Shown here in pieces: positions 3,001 to 56,766 of a DNA stretch of 64,000 bases. Source of the DNA: Schmidtea polychroa. Lineage: Eukaryota. A model generated the notes under the pieces. That model was not told the origin of the DNA, made no database searches, and worked only from the letters and a program-made list of their open reading frames with translations. The position numbers and the translations under genes are program-made. The stretch covers positions 18,354,001 through 18,418,000 of the forward strand of contig CM097885.1 of NCBI GenBank assembly GCA_044892525.1, given 5' to 3'. Every line of letters begins with the position of its first letter. The stretch's first letter is position 1.

Positions 3001-3137
3001 TTTCATTAATATTATAAAGGCATCATTATTTTTTCGGTATCTCCAATATTCAAGAGTTACAATTTTAAACTATCTTTTTAAAAATTTTCCGCGTGAACAT
3101 TAATCAGAATTTTTTTTTAATTGGATATCTTATCCTA

Positions 3138-4696
3138 CAGTGGCGGACAATTGATTATCAGCACCTATACTAATATAGAAATTTATTAAAAAAACAGTTA
3201 ACAATCAATTTAAAAATTAATAAACGTATTAAACCAGTTAGCAGTATTTAGCATGTGCTTAGAATACCTGAATAACAAAAATATTAAATAATTTTCCAAA
3301 ATGAATAAAAATGGATCGGGGGAAAATGACTACATTAAATGATGTCATTCGGGAAAAAAGGAATGAAGCGAAGAAATTGGAAAAAGAAAAAGATATAGCA
3401 ACAAATCAATGAAATCGAACAATGGAACGCGACAAGGTCGTTTTTAATTAATAAGTGCAAATGAAAATGAAGAAAATAATAAAAAAAATGGGAATAATAA
3501 ATAATTAATTAGAGCAGTCGTTAAAATAAAAAGGCAAGAAAACGAAATAAAATGATATCCCAACAAATCATTTTTAGCATAGAAAACAATAGGCTACAGC
3601 AATAAGCAGGAGTCATTTCTGTCGATCAAATCTGTATCTGTTTTAAATGAGACACATATGATGGCTTAGCTAAAACTTTTCTTCAATTGGGTTCAGATCT
3701 GGTGATGATCCAGGTTAGCTATCCACCACAGGAATATTATGTTCCATGAGTTACTTTTGCACAACCTTTGCTGAGTAACATGGGGCTCTGTCATGAAGCA
3801 GATGGGCGCAATTTTGATCTGCCATGTATGGTAGGAGATGATGTGACAGTATATCAACATACACAGTGGAGTTAATTGTTGTGCCTGTTCCAGTACTGCG
3901 AATAGCAGACAATATCATCACTGTTTGATCATCCTTTGAAGCCTGGTCATTATCATAATCATCCACGTTTCTCGACTGTGAATATTTGATAGTATTCATA
4001 GTCAATCGGGTAAATGATAACGTTGATTAATGGGTCGACGAACACATGGATTATTGCAATGGAACTGCTGTACACTGACCTCATCAGCAAACATGAACTT
4101 TATGACAGTTAACAGATGTCCGCCTTAGTTGCGATTAGAAAAAACCAACCAATCTGCAATGTTCTTTTTAAAAAGACATGGTTTTGCTGCTGGATGATAA
4201 GAAGCAAGCTTGAATTTCTGTGTAAATCGTCTTTGAATAGCACGATTGTTACGATTGCAATTACCATGTAATTCACCAAGAATATGATGAGTAGATATCA
4301 ATGGATTCATGATGACACACCTGCAAATAATAGCATCATCACGTTCAGTAGTAATAGGAGGCCTTCCACATCTATGTTTTAACGAATAGCTCTCCAGATG
4401 ATTAAATCTGGAAATTGTACAATAAACTATACGATGAGTGTACTTCTAACCTCAATGCTATTTGCTTTGTAGAATATTTTTTCTTCTGTAAGATCACTAT
4501 TTGAGACCCTAAAATTTGTAAAAGTTCTTGTTTTCGACCCATGAGAAGCAACAGCAAACTTTAAATTAAAAAGACAACCGAGAGAAATCAGGCTTAAATA
4601 TACCTGAAATTGGATTTTCCAGATTCTATATTTAAAGATTCTATATTATTAAATTCTATATCACAAACAGTGCTGCTAAACCTTTGTCCGCCTCTG
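3138..4696 (-). mobile_element. Decayed Tc1-like DNA transposon
   Basis: TIRs CAGTGGCGGACAA / TTGTCCGCCTCTG (1 mismatch), each flanked by TA. Minus-strand transposase fragments (GTINSTVYVDILSHHLLP...LLHDRAPCYSAKVVQK; KPCLFKKNIADWLVF) with frameshifts and stops. Confidence 0.85.
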
Positions 4697-10090: not shown

Positions 10091-11550
10091 TCAGTTATTG
10101 TCCTCTGTCAAACAACTCTTGTCAAATATATAACTTTTCCTAAGTTTATATTTCTTCAATATTCCATTGTTGTAATAATATCTAGAAAGTAAATATGATT
10201 GAAATGGAAAAGGTAAACAAATGAAAACCTCAAATTTCTTGACATGGATTCGTAAGTCATAGTTTCATTGCCTTGAAATATTCCCCATAAAGCGGCAATC
10301 TTTTTAGTATTTTTGATGATGAAAGATCCTTCTTGTTCGTCTATCCACGCGACTCCCATGTCATGTTGTCTTGCACATTTATCTTTTAGAACAAATAAGA
10401 AGAATTGCCACATTTCCATCCGACATGAAATGTTGTCACGAACGTTCTCAATAATTTCTATTTGTTTTCTTGTTAACTCAAAATAAAATTTCGATTTTTT
10501 CGGAATGGGTCTCAAACTGATATCTTTTACTGATCTTGAAGGTTTTGAACATTTCCTGACGTCATTAGAGGAAGAGTCAGAAACTTTTTCATTATATCTA
10601 TTATTTTGTAACTTAAGATTGGAAGGTTGTAATTTTTGATGATTTATCAATTCCTTAGTTATGTAAGAATCTGCAGTCATGAATCCCGAGGACATATATC
10701 CACTATCATAATTCAGTTTTGGTAATTTATAATTATTATCATTATTATTTTCATTTCCATCAAAATGGCAATTATCAAAACTTCTTTTTTTGTCAGTAGA
10801 TAAAATCGAATTGTCTAATTCTTTCGGGTTGATTAGTCTATGAATTAGTTTTGGTTTTTTCTTCGTATGAATTTGATTTTGAATATTTACAAAATCATTA
10901 GGAGCAGATTCATATACATAATTTTCAGTCATATAACCAGACATATTATTTGCCATTGGTGTATATAAATGGGCGTTGGAATAATTTGGATAGTTACTGT
11001 TAGGTAGACTTATATATCCGGATGGGATTCCGAAAGGTTGGGGCATAAATTGTAGGTCATTGTTATTGTGACTGTTGAATAATTGATGATTGTTGTTTAT
11101 GTTCAATAAATTTTGATTCGAAATAAATTGGTTATTATTATTATTATTATAATCATTTTGCAATGAAGTATTATTGTTTATTCCAAATTTCGATTCATAT
11201 TGATTATAATTCTGATTGTAAGGATTATAAATAAAGTTATTAGACATTGATGGAGTCAATGGATCTTGAGGAAGAGGTTGATCGATTAATGGATTGAACT
11301 CTAAAATAACAATGAATAAAGTCAGTGAATTTTTAAATATTACCAGGTAAATCTTTAATGATTTCATCGAATACTAAAGAAATTAGAACATATAATTTAA
11401 ATGGTATACTTAATAAATTGCTTACGTTCATTGTCGGGCAAAAAGCTATCAGATTGATCTAAATTTAAATAAATTAAATAAAGTTAATTAAAATATTTAA
11501 TAATTACCTTTAAAAATCTCGTCGAACCAAGCTTGATCATCCTGGTTCAT
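10091..11550 (-). CDS. ETS-domain transcription factor (paralog 1), 5 exons
   Basis: Exons 11550-11508, 11458-11426, 11373-11344, 11300-10229, 10181-10091 with GT-AG introns of 43-52 nt keep the frame open. C-terminal MWQFFLFVLKD...W...F...IAALWG...MTYESMSRNLRYYY..GIL.K...Y.F matches the ETS consensus. N-terminus is acidic, then N/Q/P-rich. Confidence 0.9.
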
Positions 11551-12369: not shown

Positions 12370-13170
12370 TTTGATACGAAGTGAACCCGTTGTCCATTGT
12401 AATATTTCACCCTGTATGTAATATTGGCTCAATCAATCTTTTCACTATTGAATCGGATTTATTATCCTTTTTATATGGACCTTCCGGTTGTTTTCCGACT
12501 TAAACTTCCATTTTTGCAGTATAGTATACATCGGAATCCACCAGTGCGAATATTTTAATTCCATATTTTGCTGGTTTGTTTGGAATATATTGCTTTTAAC
12601 TACGTCAGCGAAAACTTTCCAGGAGTTCGTTCACCGTGGCAAACATGCCAATTTTATAAATATTTTCACATCGATTTGAAAAATAATCAGTTCTAGTTTG
12701 TCGATTTTTTTCCTTTCCTCTTGATCGACTTAATTATCAAATCGCAATGCTCTGGTTAGGATATAAAATCGATTATAGCGCATCGTAAATCTAAAACATT
12801 CTGGAGCTGTAACATCAGTATCCCAAAGATCTTCTACATTCGCACGAGAAGATTTTAGAACTCCTGCTATGTATAACAACCCAAATAAGGCCTTTATTTC
12901 ATTCAACGTCGTTGCCAATACGTCTCGCTCACGGCTGTATTTGCTCCTCATTTGGTCTAAACGACTGTTCGTGTGGTCGACAATTTCAGCGAGGATTTTA
13001 TTTGGCATTCTTGTGGGGATTTTGCGTTTTTTTCGAAAGAATTCACCCCGGGTTGGCTGGTAACAATATTCCATCTTCTTGTTCGTCCGCTCTTCGAAGG
13101 TGGATGAGCTCTACATACGTATTTTTTATATTTTCCATAAATTATGGGTTCGTTAGGGGATATATATGGG
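12370..13170 (-). mobile_element. piggyBac transposase remnant
   Basis: EIKALFGLLYIAG...EDLW...F..MRYNRF..LTRALRFDN, then KQYIPNKPAKYGIKIFALVD and NITMDNGFTS motifs. Stops and frameshifts; no termini found. Confidence 0.85.
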
Positions 13171-15324: not shown

Positions 15325-17503
15325 TATAATGTTCGCGTTGGTCGTATAATTGTCATTATGTCAATTAACTGATCTCTATAAACTATCTCCATACTAATCG
15401 AGATTTTATCGTTTCATCGGTGAATTGGCATTACTTCATTGATATCGTCACTGGTTCCATGAAGTGAAAAGGCATAAGTTCAATTGAAACGAAATAATAT
15501 AAAAAATTTTTAATGTGGAACTAACTTAGTGGCCGCCTTATATAGTAATTTTTAACCAATCATAATTAAGTCGGGTTGTTTTTTGGTTATTTTTCTTTAT
15601 TCTTTATTATTTTATTGTTTTTCTTATGTATTATTTTGTTTTATTTTGTTATTTTATTGTTTTATTAGTTTTCTTGTATTTTGCGTAATTTCGCCTATTT
15701 TTGTTGGTTTTTGGGCGTGTAACGGCCTATTTTCAGTTTTTCTTTTAATTTTAATTAGTATTTCGTATTTTTATTTATGTTTTCCTATTTTCTTGTTTGG
15801 GTTATATTTTCTTATTCCTCATATTTTATTATTTTGTATTCTTATTTTATTTATTACTAAATTTAATTATTTTATTTACTTTTTCTTTCCTGTTTTTTCT
15901 TCCTCCATTCAGTTCTCAGCCATTAACCGCCCAACAACTATTTTTTTGTTCAGCCCAACAGATCCTACATTAATTTTAAAATTAGATTTCTAAAAACAGA
16001 CATTAATAATAGGGTTTAAGCAAAAAGATTTATTTGATAAATTTGTGAAAAAATCAGTTAATTTTTTAGTTGATCCAAAATTTATAATGTTACAATGTAT
16101 ATTTTAAAAAAAATGTTCAAAATCCCCCCCCCCCCAGTGGGGATAATTTGAAGATGATCCAAAAATTGTTTTTCTAGAATTTCCCAGGACTTGTGTATTA
16201 CTCTAATAAGTTGTTCTAAAGTTTAGAATCTAAACCAAAGTTTTATATAGAACAACATGAACCTAATAGTTTTTTGCATTAAATTAACAGTTTTCTTGGA
16301 AAATTGTGCGTTTTAAAACATACTTTTTGAAAATTTATCTACTTTTCTACTTTTTCTCAAATTGCCCATTCAATTTCCAGCATTATTCATAATTGTTATT
16401 GTTATTTAGGGTTATAAAATGATGATTTGTCAAAAATATGATAAAAAAACTTCTGTGAACTGTAAACTCAAATACATAAGTTTGCGTTATATAGGATAGC
16501 CTAGTGTACACCTATGTCAAATTTCGTATCGATTAGTCACTCCGTTTGTCTTGTCTAATTAAACAAAAATGTTATAATTTCTATATGAAAATATGCAGTT
16601 TCAATCTCCCTTTAATGGAAAGAGAACGTTTTAGTCATGATAATATAAGAAATAAGAGAATTTTATTTTTCTATTGCTCTAAATTCTGTTACTAGGTGCT
16701 TTAATTTTTCCTTAACTGCCGTTTTGACTTATAGTCTAAGCAAGGATCGCAATTACCATTAAGATGAACACCGTGTTTCAGCTTTTACATAATTATCCTT
16801 GGAATGGTTGGCTTTCTTCGCGGATACTGAACGTCCGCTTTTCTTCCATAGATCAGTTTACTTGTGTTCTCGAATAATGTTGTCATTACCTTTTCGGGAA
16901 ACAGAGTATTCTAGTTTTGCCTACCGGCCTCACTCATACTCTTTTACGTCAGAATACTAGGAGTAGATAAACTACCGGATATTTAAACTGTTGTGTGTAT
17001 CTATTGCAAACTGTTTAGATCATTTATTAAAAATAGTAAATGAAAACATTTCAATCATTTTTTGCAAGTTTTTTGTAATCTTTAGAAACACAAAAAACAT
17101 GTTGAAAAAATTTTTTAATCATTAATTATTTGGAAAATTTACTATAGTTGTGAATAAGATTCATTGAAAATATATTGTTGAAGAATATTAATTTTTAATT
17201 AATTTACTTTGATTTGAGAAATTCGGAAATTTTTATCTAAGTTATTTAAATTTGTGATTTGTAGTTTATTGGAAGTTAGAGAATCTGAAAAATTTCGAAT
17301 TTAGTTTAATTTAATAAAGTTTTGTGAGATCTCAATTTATTATTTGAGTATTTTATATTTAAATTATTTTTGAATACTTGAAACGATGGATATAATTAAT
17401 ACAAGCAACGGTGAAGTTCTGGAAAATTCAGCCAAATTTTCTTCCAAATTTAAATTTAAAGTTAAATTCGAATGTCTTGAAAGCTCAGAAGATGATTTGG
17501 AAT

Positions 17504-17580
17504 GAAAATTAATTCATGTCAGCAGCGCCTCTAATGCAGATTTAGATCAAGTCCTTAATATTTGGACCAATTCCTGTTGG
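17504..17580. repeat. 77-bp direct repeat, left flank of viral insertion
   Basis: Identical by eye to 20121-20197 (GAAAATTAATTCATGTCAGCAGC...CCAATTCCTGTTGG). Confidence 0.95.
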
Positions 17581-20062
17581 GTTGTAGACTTCGCTTTCAT
17601 TGATTGTGCTCGCCGGGCCTTTAGCAGAGTACCCAAGGACAGTCACCTTTACGCCTATATTTGCAATTAACTTCAGTCGAGAATATTCGTAGGTAAACTC
17701 CAAATCAGTAGGAGTGTGAGAGTATGTTGTGATGTTGATGTCGAATACTATCGGAGCAAAGCCTTCCCTTCTGCTCCACTTTTGGCAATTTTCGAGATCT
17801 AAATAAATGGAGCCTAATGTTCTACTATTTAATTTAGTGCGACCCAATTCCTTACAAAGTTCACATAAAGGCTTTTGAACTTTCACTAAGCTTTTAAGAT
17901 CCCTCACAGTTATATATGTCAGAAATTCATCTAACATTCTTATCTCGACCTGTTCACGGTTGATGCTGCCTTTCCACAGACCAGGCCCAGTGTAAATTCC
18001 CTTGCAGTAGCGCTGTCTAATAATGAACCCGCCGATAGTACAGCTTTGAGAATTCTCTAACAACTCTATTGAGCATGGTTTTCCAGAAGCAAATCTAGTA
18101 AAAATGTAGAGAATCCTGGATCCCTCGTCTAAATCAAGTATAAAATGAGTCTCTTCCTGCATGTCGTCTCTTATTAATTGGAAATAGTCCTTGAATATTA
18201 GCAGAACTGTTTGTTTTGATCCGCCGTCAGGGCACTTAGATAATCTCCACAATTTAGTTTTGAGTGATAAAAATGATTTATCATTTTCAGCCTTTTCAGA
18301 ATATCTTGTAGTCAAACTTTGTTGTAAAGAAAATCTTGGCCAATAGCAGTTGACGGCTGCTTCGGAAACAGTGCCAAAAACAGTACTGCATTTTCTAATT
18401 GGCCCAGTGATTTCTATGCATCTGCTTTTTGAAATGATGGACGATAAGAAGGAGTGTAGGCTGAATGCATTTGGGAACGGGCTTTTCTGAATCGTCTCCT
18501 CAAATGTCTCAGACAGCCAAGGGAATAATAGCTGATATTTTGAAAAAGCAGCAGCTTTCAAGAGTTTCCCACCTTGTATTGGTAGATGAAACCACTTTTC
18601 TTTGCACAATGCTAACAGTGGAAAGTTGGAAACCACTGCCTCTCTTAGGACTCGAACTGCCACAAACTTGTTCCTCAATCTGTCTGAAGAGACTAGAGTT
18701 CTCTGAGAGAGTTCAAAATTAAAGCGGATCAAACTTTTGAAAAACACTCTCTCAGGGAACAAAATCTTCATCCAGTGAAGAGATTGTCATAGGGAATTCC
18801 TTAATGAGATCTCCTAGATCCTCCTCTTCTGATGAGTCGTCATCTATCTCTCCGAGCCAGGCGTCACAATCCTCATCTAGCTCGCACATGTCAAAGTCTT
18901 CAGAGACATTCTGCGCTTTGGAATAATCCAACAAGCTTAAATTCTCGGTTTTTTGCACGTTTTCAATCTTGGTGCCAATTTCTTCATATAGGCTCGCAAA
19001 CCCTTTCATTGCTAGCAGTTTCTTCACCTCTGTTTTCGACCATTGAGGGTATTTCCTTACGACTGCTCTGCTCTCATTCACACTAAGATGGTGATTGCAT
19101 ATAACGCTCCATTCAAGCAGCTTGAAGCCTGGCTGAGGTTTTATTCCAGGGTTGTAGACTTCGCTTTCATTGATTGTGCTCGCCGGGCCTTTAGCAGAGT
19201 ACCCAAGGACAGTCACCTTTACGCCTATATTTGCAATTAACTTCAGTCGAGAATATTCGTAGGTAAACTCCAAATCAGTAGGAGTGTGAGAGTATGTTGT
19301 GATGTTGATGTCGAATACTATCGGAGCAAAGCCTTCCCTTCTGCTCCACTTTTGGCAATTTTCGAGATCTAAATAAATGGAGCCTAATGTTCTACTATTT
19401 GATTTAGTGCGACCCAATTCCTTACAAAGTTCACATAAAGGCTTTTGAACTTTCACTAAGCTTTTAAGATCCCTCACAGTTATATATGTTAGAAATTCAT
19501 CTAACATTCTCCACCTCTAACATTAACCACCTCTATGTTGTGATGTTGATGTCGAATACTATCGGAGCAAAGCCTTCCCTTCTGCTCCACTTTTGGCAAT
19601 TTTCGAGATCTAAATAAATGGAGCCTAATGTTCTACTATTTGATTTAGTGCGACCCAATTCCTTACAAAGTTCACATAAAGGCTTTTGAACTTTCACTAA
19701 GCTTTTAAGATCCCTCACAGTTATATATGTCAGAAATTCATCTAACATTCTTATCTCGACCTGTTCACGGTTGATGCTGCCTTTCCACAGACCAGGCCCA
19801 GTGTAAATTCCCTTGCAGTAGCGCTGTCTAATAATGAACCCGCCGATAGTACAGCTTTGAGAATTCTCTAACAACTCTATTGAGCATGGTTTTCCAGAAG
19901 CAAATCTAGTAAAAATGTAGAGAATCCTGGATCCCTCGTCTAAATCAAGTATAAAATGAGTCTCTTCCTGCATGTCGTCTCTTATTAATTGGAAATAGTC
20001 CTTGAATATTAGCAGAACTGTTTGTTTTGATACGCGGTCAGGGCACTTAGATAATCTCCACA
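17581..20062 (-). other. Endogenous viral element: C-terminal part of a Phenuiviridae/Bunyavirales-like L protein (RdRp), rearranged as three overlapping segments
   Basis: Intronless and GC-richer than its flanks. Motifs KEKWF...FPWLSETFEETIQKSPF...SKSRCIEITG and IGGFIIRQ...YTGPGLWKGSINREQVEI...LCELCKELG parallel phlebovirus L as I recall it (SDKWF...WLEDT...SKPRTVRITG; IGGF..PQ...YKGKGVWTGVMEDTHVQI...LCDDLG, cap-binding region). Segments A 17581-~18771, B ~18752-19510, C 19534-20062. Confidence 0.85.
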
Positions 20063-20120
20063 TAGAAATAATTGATTCTGGAATTATTTTTTCACGATTC
20101 ATGTATAAGATTTTGTATAA

Positions 20121-20197
20121 GAAAATTAATTCATGTCAGCAGCGCCTCTAATGCAGATTTAGATCAAGTCCTTAATATTTGGACCAATTCCTGTTGG
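20121..20197. repeat. 77-bp direct repeat, right flank of viral insertion
   Basis: Identical by eye to 17504-17580. Confidence 0.95.
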
Positions 20198-20431
20198 TCG
20201 TCATGATTTTGTTCTTGATATTCCCTCTTGATGATAGTATCGGTGTAACTGGAAACAATTCATAAAAATCAACAATTAGTTCGAATCGATTATTTTGTCA
20301 GCAATGAATATGAAAAAGAAGAAATGAATTTTGTTCATTTTGTACAAAATTTTACTTCTACCGAAACATATCGTAGCAGACCGTGGTTCCTTTTGGGGGG
20401 GCACAATAAAATTTCAAAGGTATAAAATTCA

Positions 20432-20832
20432 TTAAAAGATTATTTAAACGTTAAAGAGTTTAACAAGTCAATCAATCCTGATAGAGATGTAGCTTATGGT
20501 GCTGTTGTTCAGGCTGCTATCTTATCTGTAGACATGAGTGACGTTGTTAAATATTCATTGTTGTTTGATGTTGCTCCATTAATATTGCATATTGAAACCA
20601 CTGGAGGAGTCATGCCAGCTCTTATTAAGAGAAATTCTACCATTCCAACAAAACAAGCTCAAACTTTTTCAACATACGCTGATAACCAACAAGGTGTCTT
20701 GATTCAAGTTTTTGAAGGTGAAAGAGTCATGACTACAGACAACAATCTAACTTGGTAAATTCGAATTGTCGGGAATGCCACCTGCTTTAAAAGGTGTTCC
20801 TCAAATTGAAGTCACATTCGATATCGATGCCA
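20432..20832 (+). pseudogene. HSP70 internal fragment (pseudogene)
   Basis: [21 protein letters not shown]...[34 protein letters not shown]...[11 protein letters not shown]. Frameshift near 20750; truncated at both ends; conserved residues eroded. Confidence 0.92.
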
Positions 20833-22439
20833 GTTTATCGATGGGCCAATCAGCAAAAAATCAGATAGCAGGTATGATTGCAATTTGTCACGATCTGATT
20901 TTTAAAAATTCTAAAATTCATTATAATAATATAATTTGGGATAAGGTATCAATTTTGTCATTTAACCGCACCTTATATATCACAATAAATAAACAATTCC
21001 TTGAAGCATGAAATATTCATATGGATGGGTGCAATAGCAAATGTTTACGTTATTGCAATGTGAACTGTACAATTATAATAAAATATATATATATAATTCA
21101 ACTATTAAATACAATTATAAGTACAATTATAATAAAATATATATATAATTCAACTATTAAAAGTGAATTATTAATAAATATTTAAAATGTAAAGTATATA
21201 ATTGATTTAATAACTGTGATTAGAAATCGGCGACGGATATGCCATTTGTAGGGGTCTCGAAGGTGACTCTTTGTAATTTGATATATAAATACATACATTT
21301 AAACAAAATTTAAAATAAGAAGGTCTAGATCAGGGTCATAACGATTTTCGCAAGCAATCATTAAAATTATGGTAATAAAAATTAATTTTATGAGTAATGG
21401 GTAATAGGCCCAACGTAAAGGGCCTAGGAGGTTACCAAGGGATATCCTACCCCCTTTAAATCAGCAGATATTCCTGAAAACATTGAATGGAAATGTTGTC
21501 ACGCTTGATTTATCCCTTCGCTTATCTCCTGTATAAACTCTGTTCTAAATCAAATGAACTAAAATAGATTAAAAAAATTATTAACCTCCAGTTAAACCAA
21601 CAATAATAAAAAACTTCAAATTTACAAAAATTCGTGCAGAAAATAAATGGAATTTTATTTTTAATTTTTGGAAAATTCTGGTAGATTATCGATCTTGGTT
21701 TTATCGTTTCCGTCGTATCTTGAGCTGTGTTCGATTGACTTTCGGTTTGATTCTTTTCTTCTCTGGTTTTCATCTCTGCTTTAGTCTTGAGGTCTCATTA
21801 TTTGAGATTCTCAACTTACTTGTTCTTATATAAATTATCAAATAACAATAAGGCCTGGTTATAAACATTTAATAAAAAATATTCACCTAAAAGAAATGAC
21901 ATGCTTTTACTTTTTGATATCGGATAGGTGCGTGTTATATATTTGTGTGTATGACAGTTGATGCTTGTTATATTATGTATGCAAAAAAAATTGTGATATA
22001 AAAGTCAACTAAAATTCTTTTAAATTTTATGCTGTCGTAGTTTGAAAACTTTTGAAGGATTTCCTTCAAAGTTTTTTAGCAAGGATAAGACTTTATTTTA
22101 TGGGGAGATTAACTGATTTTTGCGCGCTTATTTATATGAGATTTTATTTAATGAATATTAAATATTATTATTTCCGGCTTATACGCACGGGATATTTAAC
22201 TAATTTTTCACCAATGTTTTTAAGATTTTCTTATTATACACTATATTAATTAATTATATATACGTTGTTCGTTCAATAATGCATCGGACTAACTAAGAAA
22301 GAAAAAACACAAAAAACTGAAACAAATTTTATCAAATACTAGTTCGAAAAACACATTTAATTATTTTTCTATATAATTACCATTGGCAACAACCGATTTA
22401 TTCCATCGAATAACCAAATCTTGAAATACATCAGCAAAC

Positions 22440-22670
22440 ATGTCTCACGTTGCGTAATTTTTTGATTGGAAATTTCAGTTGGTCTACCAACATAGGAATA
22501 ATCTTGGTTCACACTTTCATGGCCATGCTTGAATAATGATATCCAACGATATATTGTGTATCTAGAAGGACATTTGTTGCCATATGTAATTGCCATATCA
22601 CGAAATATTTTATCAGACGACTTCTTTAAAAGCACAAAGAATTTTATTACTTCTGTATTCCACCTCATCC
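22440..22670 (-). mobile_element. mariner transposase N-terminal HTH remnant
   Basis: VIKFFVLLKKS...IFRDMAITYG..CPSRYTIYRWISLFKHGHESVNQD...GRPT is a mariner-type HTH; the rest is missing. Confidence 0.8.
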
Positions 22671-24481
22671 ATTTGACAAAAAAAATGGAATTAGAAGTAC
22701 TTACGTCAGCCAATCAGATTATTTAATTTATGCATCTAAACAAGCATACATGTAAATGCTAAAACCAATTGGTAATATATAATTTCGATTGTAGAATTTG
22801 ATTGACTTGGGTTTCATTGAATCTTCTCTTGGGCTAAAATCACTTGTTAGGAGAAAAGCACTTATGGGACTGCCACTGTCATATAACATTAGTTTATTGT
22901 AATTTATCCTTATTTTCCTTAATGTAAACTCCAAGTTTCGTTGAGATGGATTGGATTGTATAGAGTCTGGTTGTGTTACGAGAGAATTAATGTGGGTTAA
23001 ATCGTTTGCTGAATTTCTCGGTAGCTTATGCTTCGAATTAACTTTTTCTGTGGTTCTTTCTTTTTTTGTGTTTTAGAGTTCTAGAGAGTTTTGTGGTTTT
23101 CCTTTTGTCTGTTTCTGTGCTGCTTTCTGATTGTTGTTTTTTGGTCGGTTGTTTTTAGTTGTGTTACTTTGGGTATTTATATCCTTTGGTTTATCTCAGG
23201 TAGGACCTTACGCTATCTGAGTTTTCATTGAAATTTCTTGCGGGTGTCTAGTCTCACCCTCGTTAATTATTGTACAGCTTTAGGTCGGTGCTGTTGAATC
23301 AGCACCTACTTTTTTGAACTAAAATTTGTTGAATTTGTTACTATGTTGAAATTTTTCAAAATATAATTTTCTAGGTTTTTTGTATGCCGTTTTCCTTGAC
23401 TTCCTTTCCTAATTTATATTTTTCGTATTTTTTTGTTTAAATGAAGTAATTTAATTATGTTTTTTGCAAAACACTTGGAACACGAAAATAAGTTTTATTA
23501 TTTCTATAATTATACAATAACAATTATTTATTGAACAAGTATTAGGTAATAAACAAAGAAAGCAAGATATAATATCAAATATATATAAAAAATGCAATTA
23601 AAATTTAAAATGTTCACGTTTCAAATACTTGTATTGTAGTTTTGTGAGAATTTGTGTATTCTGACCTTGGAATAAGCACGATTCATCCAGTCGTTCGTAG
23701 AAACGATGTTTCATATCATTTACATCGGTTAATTAATATTGTATTAATATTGACCAAAATTATCCTAGTTTGACGTAAAATTTCTCAAATTGCCCATTCA
23801 ATTTCCAGCATTATTCATAATTGTTATTGTTATTTAGGGTTATGTTCTGAACTTGACTATATAAAAATAACTATCTTGTTCGTCGATTGCTTTGCATGTT
23901 TTGCAGAAGATTTGTAAGAGCCCAGCAGAGCCTCCTTTAAAACTTTAAATTGTACGGCTGCAAAAGAATAATTTTATAAATTATTATAAACTTTTTTTTT
24001 CAAATTTCACCACTGATTTCTTTTCCATTGAAATTGTATATAAACATCATGTTATTACAAATTCTTTTTCAAAACTTGGTTATATACAATATGTTTAATA
24101 CATCGTGTGACGTTAAAAAGTTGAAAATAGCAAAGCCTATACAGAAATTTCATGTGCTAGAATATCAGGTTGCCATTGTTTATTACAGTCAAACAAACAC
24201 ATTTGTTCTGTTTGATACTAGATCAGGGATTACCAACACGTCGATTGCCGAGCAAGTTTTGTTCGATCTCAAAGTATTTGAAAGTTATGTGATTTCTTAA
24301 TTTCTTTTTACTTGGTAGATCAGTATTTTTTTAAAATGCCATAGTCTATCGCAAGTTTAAACAAGTTGGCCACCCCGCTATAGATTATAAAAACAAATTG
24401 TAATCAACCTGAATTGTGTTGTGCGAAATATGAGCCAAATGAGCATGAAAAAACATGAAATTATAGAATTTATTTAAAAAA

Positions 24482-26238
24482 TTAATCATGGGACAATAAA
24501 TGCAGTGGAACTTTGAATTCGGAAATAATTGATTCTGGAATTAATTTTTCACGATTCATGTATAAGATTTTGTAGGTAGCTGCAATAGTTGATTCTGATA
24601 CACCCATAATATCTCGAATTTCTAAATATTATGATTTTAAAAACGTTAAATTTTTGAAAATATTACGTTTTTTTGAAATTTTCTCGTTCATAAGTAAGCC
24701 TGCCATATATATAGACGCTGATATCAAACTACTTGGTTTCTTCTCTGAAAATATTTTCGATGCATTTGCAATGCATATTGCTAGTTTTTCAAGAGATTTA
24801 TTTTTAATTTGCAACTGGTAACAGAATCGAGGAACTTGGTCAATAATATTTGATGACTCACAAGCCAATCCAAGAGCAACTCGCACTTTTTTTATCATTT
24901 TTTGAATATGCTTTAAATCTACTGCTGACACATCACAAATTTCTTAAAATTAAATATGATTAATAAATATTATATATAAAATTCTCTATAAAGATTTCTA
25001 TTTCATATAAGGTTAGTTACTCATAATTAATAAAGTATGTGAAAATAATGATTTGGCGACGCTTCATCACGCGACATTTCCTCAATTAAAAACTGAAATT
25101 TAATATTTTTACTGAAAAAAATAAGATTTTATATAAATTTAAAATTTGTTTTAAATTGTGTTTTCAAATTAATATTTTCGATAATTTCTATAATTTTAAG
25201 AAATTACTAAAAATTAAGTATAATTTTAATTAATTTGTTGAAAACGCAAATATAAAGGTTTATTTTTTGGTAATGATTAACCTTAATCCGTTTAGTTTCA
25301 AATTTGATTCCTTTTAGATTCAAATTATTCTACAAATAGCTTATATGAATGCGATTGAACTATTAAAATAATTTGAGATTAGCTATTTATATGTCAAATA
25401 ACGGAGTTTGATTTTTTTTATGTTATAAGCGAACAGTGATTGTTTTAATTCAATATTCTTTAATTATGTATGATAATAGTCATTATTTTTATTCCGAATG
25501 ATTTTTTATTAAACATTTTTTATGTTCTATTTTTCATTTTATATGTAAGTGCGATATATGCTATGTATTATATTTAGAAATATAAAGATCAGACCTTTTA
25601 CACTTCTTTCTATATTTCTATTTCGACAAACAAGAAATAAACAAGCACAAGATATTTCGTCTTTTTTCTTTCTTGTAAATCCTTTTATTTGAGTCAATTT
25701 TTTAACATATTCCATTGCAGCTAACTGAAATATATAATAACAGAATTAAAATAATTCATGTGAAAAATAACCTTTGTATTGTTATCTACTTTAATCCTCT
25801 CCCCAAAAGCCAATATGGAGGCCCTGCATTGTCTAATCATTCGGTCAGCTGGAGTGTCTACAACTCTATTTTTATATCGTTGTTCTCCATTTTCGTTTAA
25901 ATGTTTCACATCATATGACTGCTTAATAGTAATAGATGTTGCACTATTTGAACTGATGGCATTTTCAACTGCTCCAACTCGAGATTGATCTTCACCTGTA
26001 CCATCATTTGCAAATGATCGCCATTCACTTGAAAAATCAATGACCCTTCAAAAAAAGAGTTTATAATTATTTTGATTAATTTTATTACCTATCACCAACA
26101 ACCAATCCACAGGTTGAACAAATAAGATCTCCAGCTGAATAATCCTCTATTAAAACGGAATTAGGATGGTATTTACAAGCGAGTTTACTTAATAAAAATT
26201 TAAATTACTTAAAATTTTTTAATAATAACTAACATCAT
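24482..26238 (-). CDS. Transcription initiation factor IIB-like protein (divergent), 6 exons
   Basis: Exons 26238-26234, 26187-26089, 26045-25772, 25724-25595, 24942-24667, 24621-24482, all GT-AG with an open frame. Zn ribbon CKYHP...[24 protein letters not shown]-reader SEWRSFAND...SRVG, two cyclin repeats (CACLFLVCR...RSVKEIC; PRFCYQL...SASIYMA...[12 protein letters not shown]). Confidence 0.92.
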
Positions 26239-46764: not shown

Positions 46765-51039
<4,275 letters not shown>

Positions 51040-54252: not shown

Positions 54253-56710
54253 CAGTGGTGCCCAACCTTTTTATCAAGTGGGCAACTATTTAAATGAAAA
54301 AGTCTTTGCGGGCACATTTTTGAAAAATTAGTTAATAGAAAAATGATCTTATAACAATCTTTTTATTAGGAAACATGCATTTGTATTAAAAATTTAAAAT
54401 AATAAAAATAATAATGTGAAACAAAACAAACAAATTTATTTATAACATCATTTTAATGCGGCTTTTGAATTTGAGTCTGGCTAACAAGTTGATCAATATC
54501 AGGATTGATTTTTGAATTTGATAATAGAATGAGGTTTTCCAAGTGAGCATCAGTGAGTGAACATCTGAATTTGCTTTTTATGTAGTTCATTGAAGAAAAT
54601 GTCTTCTCACAAATGTAAGTTGATCCAAATTTGACCACAAACCGGAGTGCCATGTTGTTAAGTTCAGGATAGTTATTTTTTGGAACAAGCTTCCAGAATG
54701 CTTTTAAGTCGGGTGAAATAGGTGATTCACAAAGCTCTTGAAACTTTCTCTTTAATCCTGTGTGGTTTTGAATGTCAGTAATTTCCATCTGTATTTTTGG
54801 AGAATACTTGCTGATTTCACTTTCTGATATAGAGAATGGATTAATGAACAATAAAATGTTATCCTTCTCTGCCTCAAAGTCAGAAAATCGAGAAGAAAAT
54901 GAATGAGACAAATTCATAATGGCAAGTTTGTATTTTTCATAGTCCAAGTTGACAGTGATTGAACTTTCAAGTTGAAATTTCTGAAGCGTGGGGAAAAGAT
55001 CCAGATTTCCTTGAGAAAGACTGTTATAAAACAGTTTTAATTTTGCCTTAAATGCATTGATTTGATTGAATAGTGTTGGGAACAAACTATTTTCACCTTG
55101 CAATCCTGTGTTCAAGATGTTCAGGTAATTTGTGACATCAACAAGAAAAGCCAATTCACTCAACCAGGAATTGTTTTTCAAAAGATCACACACGGTAGGC
55201 AACTCTTTTTTTTCTTCCAAAAATTGCAGTACTTGGGTCCTTAACTGGAAAAATCTTGACAGCATTTTTCCCTTTGACAACCAGCGAACAGAGCAATGGA
55301 GCAAAAGTTCACCACAATCATCAGTTTCCTCTTCAAACAGGGATCGGAACTCTCTTCTATTTAGAGATCGTGCTCTAATCTTGTTAATACAGTGCACAGC
55401 TGTGTCAATAACATGCTTGAATTCCATATCCTTTGAGCAAAGAACTTCTTGATGAATAATGCAATGGTACTTAAAAAGTTTTCTTTTTAGATATTTTTCT
55501 AGAAGGGAAACACAACCGTTGTTTTTTCCAACTATTGCAGGAGCTCCATCTGTGCAGATACTTTCCAGTTGATTCCAGTTGAGCTTATACTCGTTGATGC
55601 TTGAATTTTCCACACAATCTTTCAGTGCTTCAAAGATATCGGCTCCAGTTGTTGTGGTTTTCAGTTGACAAAGGCCAAGAAGTTCCTGAACAACATCGAA
55701 GTTTTCATTGACACATCTTATATAAACCAGTAATTGAGCACTGTCAGTTGCATCACAGCTTTCATCAATTGCAATTGAAAAGTATTTTGAAAGTGAAGCA
55801 GCAACAATAATTTGTTTTGAGACATCATTGGCCATTTCTTCAATTCTCCGAGTAACTGTATTTCTTGAAAGTGCTATGTTTTTGGACAGCAATTTGTTTT
55901 TTGGGTCACCTGAGTTTTCAGCAAAAATAGAAATTGCCTCTTTTACCATTTCACCATCTGAATAACTTTTTTTTAATCTGGCAAGCAGCAGGGAAATTTG
56001 AAAGGAAGCTTTTGTCATACCGTGCATTTCTTCTTGTCTTTTGGTAAAAAATGTTTGCTGAACTGCAAGTTTCGATTTTCTCTTTGAAATAAAGTCAGTT
56101 CTGTCTGCAGATCCAATTGGGTATTTAATTTTGAATTCTGAATGCATCTGATTAAAATGACGTTCCACATTGTATTTTTTATAGACTGCAACTGTGTCAT
56201 TACAAATCAGACAAATTGGCCTTGATGATTGTGAATGTGTGAACAAAAATTGTTCTTCCCAGTTATTTCTTAACACTTGTTGCGCAGATTTTTCATCTTC
56301 ACGTTTTCTTTTTCGAGACATCCCTTTGCTGAGAGACATTTTTGTAAAAACAAAAATTATTTTTTTTATTTGGATAAATTGTTGTCCACACTGAGAGATT
56401 GTTTTTGGTTGACTGATTTAAATAGAGTTTTTTAACTAACGATGTAACGATATTTGAGTTAATTAATTTTAATTTAAAGTAGGAAAAAATTTAATTTTCT
56501 TGGAATTCCCATTTAATAATTAATTGTTGGGATTGATTAATTTTAATTTCGAAAATTAAAAATGCGCTTGTAATTCTCATTGAAACATTATACATCTTAA
56601 TGTTAAAAATTGATATTTTCTTTAACCGTATTTAGAAAAACACCCACGGGCATTTGAAAAAGTCTCCACGGGCACTTTTTTGCCCGCGGGCACTAGGTTG
56701 AGCACCACTG
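54253..56710 (-). mobile_element. hAT (SPIN/Buster-type) transposon, apparently complete
   Basis: TIR CAGTGGTGCCCAACCT / AGGTTGAGCACCACTG; perfect TSD CTCTAGGT. Confidence 0.95.
54453..56339 (-). CDS. Intact hAT transposase, 628 aa
   Basis: N-terminal CLIC...H...H zinc finger, DESCD, CTDGAP, HCIIHQE, VRWLSKG, FGSTYICEKTFS; no stops. Confidence 0.95.
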   Translation of the reverse strand: MSLSKGMSRKRKREDEKSAQQVLRNNWEEQFLFTHSQSSRPICLICNDTVAVYKKYNVERHFNQMHSEFKIKYPIGSADRTDFISKRKSKLAVQQTFFTKRQEEMHGMTKASFQISLLLARLKKSYSDGEMVKEAISIFAENSGDPKNKLLSKNIALSRNTVTRRIEEMANDVSKQIIVAASLSKYFSIAIDESCDATDSAQLLVYIRCVNENFDVVQELLGLCQLKTTTTGADIFEALKDCVENSSINEYKLNWNQLESICTDGAPAIVGKNNGCVSLLEKYLKRKLFKYHCIIHQEVLCSKDMEFKHVIDTAVHCINKIRARSLNRREFRSLFEEETDDCGELLLHCSVRWLSKGKMLSRFFQLRTQVLQFLEEKKELPTVCDLLKNNSWLSELAFLVDVTNYLNILNTGLQGENSLFPTLFNQINAFKAKLKLFYNSLSQGNLDLFPTLQKFQLESSITVNLDYEKYKLAIMNLSHSFSSRFSDFEAEKDNILLFINPFSISESEISKYSPKIQMEITDIQNHTGLKRKFQELCESPISPDLKAFWKLVPKNNYPELNNMALRFVVKFGSTYICEKTFSSMNYIKSKFRCSLTDAHLENLILLSNSKINPDIDQLVSQTQIQKPH

Positions 56711-56766
56711 CTCTAGGTGATGTTTCAACCCACCTATAGTGTATGGGAAGTTTATCATATGTAAGT

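Follow-up and report, generated by a model that had tools for sequence, protein, structure and literature searches.

How does a piece of a host gene come to lie at the edge of an inserted RNA-virus fragment, and does the join between the two amount to a new gene? The question is raised by a stretch of 64,000 nucleotides from the Schmidtea polychroa genome (contig CM097885.1, positions 18,354,001 to 18,418,000), hereafter called the window. A first-pass annotation, made from the letters alone, proposed that 53 bp of a TFIIB gene had been captured at a viral junction by template switching to nearby DNA or to TFIIB cDNA during integration, and that the captured piece supplied the start of a host–virus chimeric reading frame. 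Here, we ask where the 53-mer came from, how it was copied, and what weight the chimeric frame deserves. The features on which the argument rests are collected in the table.

Table. Features of the viral insertion, its target, and the two local captures (window coordinates)
Feature	Position	Strand	Remarks
Second capture, 63/63 copy of 23781-23843	16353..16415	+	in ~83-nt insertion within another host repeat; short duplicated flank left, 14-nt filler right
Decayed copy of high-copy Asf1-like host repeat	17174..20371 (approximate limits)	+	interrupted by the insertion
Left copy of 77-bp target duplication	17504..17580	+	2-nt overlap (GG) with viral start
Bunya-like (phenuivirus-type) L fragment	17579..18806	-	~aa 1473-1879 of 2,077-aa relative
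L fragment	18807..19510	-	~aa 1754-1996; 19149-19510 repeats 17579-17940 (360/362)
23-nt filler	19511..19533		composed of short repeats, both of neighboring bases and of itself
189-aa chimeric ORF	19533..20102	-	13 TFIIB codons, junction Met, ~175 internal L residues
Extra copy of viral 17723-18251 (526/529)	19534..20062	-	~L aa 1645-1817
2-nt filler (TA)	20063..20064		virus to TFIIB piece; makes minus-strand ATG
53-nt copy of last TFIIB exon (acceptor)	20065..20117	-	sole mismatch at 20087
3-nt filler (TAA)	20118..20120		TFIIB piece to right repeat
Right copy of 77-bp target duplication	20121..20197	+	77/77 identical to left
Donor of 63-mer	23781..23843	+	repeat as far as 23821, last 22 bases locus-specific; 638 nt beyond TFIIB stop
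TFIIB-family gene, at least 5 exons	24481..26189	-	divergent member of expanded family; Pfam PF00382 E 3.4e-6 on exon preceding last
Donor of 53-mer	24522..24574	-	internal to last coding exon 24621-24481; 47 nt after splice acceptor

The foreign component of the locus is a non-retroviral endogenous viral element (EVE): it has homology to RNA-virus proteins and lies in host DNA with a target duplication. There are 134 matches among viral protein relatives (best E 3e-51), Bunya_RdRp is present in 8 of the 10 top relatives scanned, and L proteins of 2,084 aa in the PDB match the insert at E 2e-10. Against a 2,077-aa relative, the three viral tracts align over 18768-17563 (aa 1473-1879), 19507-18764 (aa 1754-1996), and 20063-19557 (aa 1645-1817). 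Their arrangement is circularly permuted. Specifically, 17579-19510 consists of a 1,570-nt unit copied 1.23 times, with a terminal redundancy of 362 nt and a head-to-tail join near 18800-18812. Because a related EVE is colinear across the apparent ends in the window, the true join of the unit is placed near 18807. The head-to-tail structure can be read directly from the insert, and the 1,570-nt template was probably a circle. The viral copies differ from one another at only 2 of 362 and 3 of 529 positions; therefore, the insertion event is very recent. Two of the three differences in the 529-nt re-copy fall within 31 nt of the TFIIB join, and three differences (20032, 20036, and 20087) are bunched around the join between virus and TFIIB, a cluster of the kind that error-prone synthesis would be expected to leave.

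The target of the insertion is a host repeat, for which 151 candidate copies were found and 40 were scored. A better-preserved copy encodes an Asf1-like histone chaperone (Pfam E 3e-40); other copies include those at loci L016-L022, and the one at L018 has a 137-aa ORF. In 5 of the 5 other copies aligned, which are paralogous copies and not an orthologous empty site, the 77-bp stretch is single and the 53-mer is absent. On the left, the virus joins its target cleanly with an overlap of 2 nt; the right side is a patchwork. No poly(A/T) tail was found at the insert. An Hsp70 fragment (20426-21011, Pfam E 3e-30) lies directly to the right of the insertion, and the window further contains an Ets-domain exon, IS4/piggyBac-type and mariner-type transposase fragments, and a hAT-type ORF, at 10156-11373, 12730-13110, 22369-22713, and 54453-56417.

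The 53-mer within this patchwork is a real, locally templated, and very recent capture. It agrees with its donor at 52 of 53 positions, on the same strand and at a distance of 4,457 nt, and the match ends abruptly at both edges (self-BLAST E 1e-18). On the plus strand, the viral copy runs to 20062 and is followed by TA, the 53-mer, TAA, and the right 77-bp repeat. The donor is in the mRNA sense and, lying inside one exon, crosses no splice join. An 81-nt query over the 53-mer finds two places in the 781-Mb genome assembly (1,012 contigs, 4 of them large), namely the acceptor and the donor. A 30-nt core, allowed up to 2 mismatches, likewise gives 2 forward matches, with 0 in reverse and 0 in a reversed control. 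A dispersed repeat as the source of the 53-mer is therefore discarded. The same genome holds 21 TFIIB-domain matches, and members of the expanded family at L031-L042 and L053 form clusters on contigs C1 and C3, with open frames of ~300 aa that look intronless. Queries made from the last two TFIIB exons return, besides donor and copy, a single paralog of 70% identity whose match leaves out the 53-mer. At the 10 other family loci tested (drawn from the 21 domain matches and one DNA match), identity to the 53-mer is 30-33 of 53 in every case, and none of these paralogs is a better match. The first-pass annotation was thus correct about the match and its orientation, about the last TFIIB exon as donor, and about the place of the piece between viral sequence and right repeat, and two of the confounders it named, a dispersed repeat and a closer paralog, have been checked and set aside within this scope.

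The joins of the insert carry fillers of 2-23 nt, some of which are copied from adjacent bases. The 23-nt filler repeats 9 neighboring bases and 9 of its own, and 20114-20122 repeats 20102-20110, a 9-nt slip-back copy within the captured 53-mer. A junction-spanning 9-mer repeated within 30 nt is found at 4 of 8 boundaries versus 4.7% of 5,000 random window positions, a comparison in which the boundaries were picked after inspection and two of the four positives come from one filler. By the same test, such repeats occur at 0% of viral positions and 1.7% of TFIIB-exon positions; they are absent from the other 4 of the 8 boundaries, the virus/TFIIB join included. Microhomology amounts to 2 nt at the left end and a presumptive GA at the right end. 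At the virus/TFIIB join none is evident, a 9-nt inverted match at 18410 being within chance. Finally, one 7-mer occurs both at 19508-19514, where the 23-nt filler opens, and at 20055-20061, where the extra viral copy ends, which suggests that the template ended or stalled twice at the same point.

Could the join be an artifact of assembly or of a library chimera? Sequencing runs X1-X4 (3 samples from 1 study, possibly the assembly's own source data) contain 0.89-0.90 of 205 sampled words from 17400-20300. In X1, one contig covers 17579-18220 at a depth of 45.8, breaking off immediately ahead of the first base that distinguishes the extra copy, and another covers 18191-19178 at a depth of 20.9. 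The ratio of 2.2, against 2.3 expected from the assembled copies, and the position of the contig breaks fit the internal duplication. A span from virus through 53-mer to target is found in none of the read contigs listed, and the four main runs that hold the insert come from one study, two points on which an artifact could be argued. Against it, the mismatch, the fillers, and the copy-specific differences are atypical of misjoins, the sampled words recur across three samples, and the ends of the X1 contigs coincide with the point of divergence between the viral copies. We therefore consider an artifact very improbable, although the reads support the join itself only in an indirect way. In X5 and X6, from a second study, depth is ~25-55 in the flanks and only 0-3.5 over 17555-20011, which would fit absence of the insertion there, although contigs do not prove absence. 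Contig joints 17553-20305 and 17556-20179 probably represent other copies of the repeat.

A second capture, missed in the first pass, lies 1.1 kb upstream of the viral insert. Its 63 bases are an exact copy of sequence 7,428 nt away, beyond the end of the same TFIIB gene. The copy is part of a ~83-nt insertion in its host repeat, and none of the 4 other members of that repeat aligned here has this insertion. Six of six other copies of the donor repeat lack the last 22 nt of the 63-mer, which establishes the TFIIB-flank locus as the source. By its anatomy, with a different repeat and its own fillers, the 63-mer is a separate event. An AATAAA occurs 7 nt after the TFIIB stop, which carries little weight where the genome is AT-rich; the donor of the 63-mer is probably outside the mature mRNA, and a DNA template is therefore favored. 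An X6 contig extends 43 letters from the left flank into the 63-mer, and an X5 contig extends 30 letters, one short of the bridging rule. For the 14-nt filler at 16416-16429, no source beyond chance was found within the window. A 54-nt exact pair 8.6 kb apart (48108-48161 and 56713-56766) was considered as a possible third local capture. The pair derives from a high-copy repeat, and one of the three distant copies checked is identical to it; it was rejected as a diagnostic case.

Probably, the 53-mer was copied from the nearby chromosome by DNA-templated repair synthesis during viral integration, either as a repair-mediated duplication or as filler of the polymerase-theta type. The idea is as follows. 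A piece of viral L RNA would have been converted to DNA, or copied in place, by a host retroelement reverse transcriptase, as established knowledge of such elements would have it. Copying would have entered the 1,570-nt head-to-tail unit, probably a circle, through the 2-nt microhomology (17579-17580) and gone round it 1.23 times. Slippage, the 23-nt self-templated filler, and the 529-nt re-copy would have followed, in an order that we deduce from the structure observed. The free end would then have annealed 4.4 kb away in the last TFIIB exon, where the 53 nt now present in the insert would have been copied, presumably from DNA. A 12-nt slip-back, gain of the GA end, and re-annealing 77 nt upstream of the original break would have produced the 77-bp duplication. 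From slippage onward, the synthesis may have been the work of polymerase theta or of a repair polymerase like it; the genome contains a family-A polymerase exon whose best PDB matches are to polymerase theta (E 9e-11, one exon only). Nearby DNA is favored as the template because the donor is a physical neighbor and because a second capture came from 638 nt past the stop. Local capture during integration is thus upheld, and of the two templates that had been suggested at the outset, nearby DNA is preferred over cDNA.

The capture has precedents. It belongs to a described class of short local captures. Among human duplicons, 824 of 1,136 have a donor within 5 kb, and the class includes fillers, exon pieces, and 20 two-donor chimeras, with no tail (Pace et al. 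2009, PMC2671141). Like its members, as portrayed in the available part of that paper, the 53-nt piece is an insertion of at least 50 bp that interrupts a repeat, here the Asf1-like one, has a single genomic donor within 5 kb, lacks poly(A), is bordered by short fillers (2 and 3 nt), and, as a piece of exon, forms part of a two-donor chimera. Unlike them, the second donor is viral DNA, which is new to the Pace 2009 set as far as that part describes it, and the host is an invertebrate. The 77-bp duplication also exceeds the 4-21 nt reported there for repair-mediated duplications, although length is not a class criterion, and the 63-mer, with its donor at 7,428 nt, falls beyond the 5-kb limit. 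Templated fillers are a footprint of polymerase theta, also where foreign DNA is captured at breaks (PMC10923293, consulted in part). T-DNA filler offers a close likeness, with foreign DNA at a break and iterative fillers drawn from flanks and neighboring molecules (parts of PMC10923293 and PMC5730883). Target duplications can arise from 3' overhangs via classical NHEJ or theta, most of those in wild-type cells being assigned to classical NHEJ in the available text of PMC5730883. Insertions templated from adjacent sequence are a further likeness to theta end joining, given the slip repeats at 4 of 8 boundaries versus 4.7% at random. In contrast to the cases in those texts, ours is a natural germline event with a putative enzyme, its donor lies 4.4 kb off and not in the immediate flank, and its 1.9-kb viral tract exceeds typical fillers. 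Templated sequence insertion polymorphisms of class 2 similarly place a DNA patch at a break, and in the accessible part of PMC5110952 their donors are distant, whereas ours is adjacent.

An RNA template would fit as well, because no part of the 53-mer lies outside the exon, because its sense is that of both TFIIB mRNA and viral L mRNA, and because the patched end is the 5' one with respect to the viral sense strand, as it is in target-primed reverse transcription. In that case, a retroelement reverse transcriptase working on viral RNA at a nicked target would have jumped for 53 nt to TFIIB RNA, whether nascent, chromatin-tethered, or in the form of cDNA. Every copied piece, whether of virus or of TFIIB, is complementary to sense RNA, the right end is patched where the left is clean, and viral shards lie 5' of another L EVE (L062). 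LINE inserts resemble the locus in their clean 3' end and in a 5' end patched with extra flank-derived nucleotides, according to the part of PMC4245944 available to us; here, however, there is no LINE sequence and no poly(A) or other tail, and the target duplication, for which peaks of 3-15 bp are given there across LINE clades, reaches 77 bp. Nor does the copy contain a junction between exons. Chance alone would give the sense orientation half the time. A free mRNA would be competing with thousands of others, but the piece comes from a physical neighbor, and the donor of the 63-mer lies 638 nt past the stop, beyond the AATAAA, again a weak sign in this AT-rich genome. We regard the jump to RNA as possible but rather unlikely. 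It is improbable that a repair event of its own, earlier or later than the arrival of the virus, brought in the 53-mer. The 63-mer does show that patches reach this neighborhood away from virus, but the 53-mer is placed precisely where the virus ends and a 77/77 duplication, still intact, begins, and it is connected to that duplication through its own last filler.

Another route would begin with the virus itself, which belongs to a cap-snatching group: cap- or start-snatching would have made a TFIIB–L chimeric mRNA that was later integrated. The first-pass annotation held cap-snatching to be unlikely, and we concur, giving it scarcely any probability. The host piece comes from the last exon and is joined near L aa 1645 of 2,077, and its 53 nt are above the usual 10-20 nt of a snatched leader. 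Host AUGs can start chimeric proteins in this way, and here too a host AUG is in frame with viral coding sequence; snatched leaders, however, are capped 5' ends joined to the viral 5' UTR, in the portion of PMC7323901 consulted, whereas here the host gene end and the viral place are the wrong ones and the join is at the level of DNA.

Repair synthesis from nearby DNA, as we favor, leaves the meaning of the chimeric frame to be considered. The 53-mer does supply the start of the 189-aa ORF, as claimed; the importance attached to the frame is not borne out. The ORF begins with MNREKIIPESIIS, that is, 13 host-derived codons, with a second ATG, made at the junction by the TA filler, as codon 14. 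Its viral part, as went unnoticed in the first pass, duplicates 17723-18251, from the middle of L, and contributes only ~175 internal residues, and the frame stops at a stop codon created by the filler join. An in-frame ATG that reaches the virus is provided by 15.6% of 20,000 random host 53-mers and by 15.7% of 178 53-mers from the last exon. Because ~16% of random placements thus suffice, and because the junction makes its own ATG, the ORF is likely an incidental by-product and not a new gene; a viral coding fragment inserted so recently would have an open frame in any case. That the frame is an expressed and selected gene is highly improbable. It is open for 189 aa from a real TFIIB methionine, but, besides the frequency with which chance offers such a start, the insert is too young to show selection, the sequence upstream of the ORF is the antisense strand of a decayed repeat, and the L piece lacks the polymerase core and matches no Pfam family. 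Among the runs listed as containing the insert there is no RNA run, and contigs of run X7, guessed to be RNA, fall in 3 of 30 bins, which contain repeats only; neither observation has a bearing on expression.

The layout of the insert recurs elsewhere in the genome. Specifically, the L element at L062 (4653-7229) is permuted likewise, with aa 1179-1774 followed by aa 1034-1214 and a 107-nt terminal repeat, and contig C3 carries tandem L arrays (L057-L059) with units of ~3.0 and ~3.6 kb. Permuted and redundant (362 nt, 107 nt) or tandem bunya-like L elements are signs pointing to circular templates. L061 and L062, which were examined for local captures, sit in segmentally duplicated, satellite-rich DNA. 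Upstream of the L062 element, 3130-4650 contains viral shards (26, 74, and 45 nt) along with pieces of repeats, and one piece of this patchwork reads AYADDL, which we take to resemble the reverse-transcriptase motif of LINEs. Circular DNA of RNA viruses has been described in insects, where, in the available part of PMC5857290, the circles are chimeras with LTR retrotransposons. The present insert shares with these circles and other non-retroviral EVEs a sub-genomic viral fragment and a head-to-tail join that implies a circular intermediate; in contrast to the insect circles, no retroelement sequence was found in its 1,570-nt unit. We found no paper on a circularly permuted layout of an RNA-virus EVE in a literature that omits most subscription journals, and among the papers listed on EVE junction chimeras or planarian EVEs, judged by title or the start of the abstract, nothing like the 53-mer capture; on filler DNA at endogenous viruses, the same literature yielded a single paper, on an unrelated matter.

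We speculate, and hold it doubtful, that bunya-like sequences enter by rolling copying of small circles, that neighboring genes are sampled when the break is sealed, and that the 3' end of the TFIIB gene is a repeated donor (two direct-orientation captures), perhaps exposed by an R-loop or nascent RNA, so that viral fragments would be given host start codons at birth.

As originally posed, a 53-bp capture with a likely neutral hybrid ORF, the finding is of modest interest. The insert as a whole is an unusually fresh and readable record of an RNA-virus fragment joining an animal chromosome, with a circle-like template, slippage, a local host patch, and a long target duplication all preserved; the integration of non-retroviral EVEs otherwise has to be reconstructed, for the most part, from decayed copies. 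The permuted layout with its terminal redundancy, which recurs at L062, makes the integration route testable and is a more interesting lead than the capture of the 53-mer itself.
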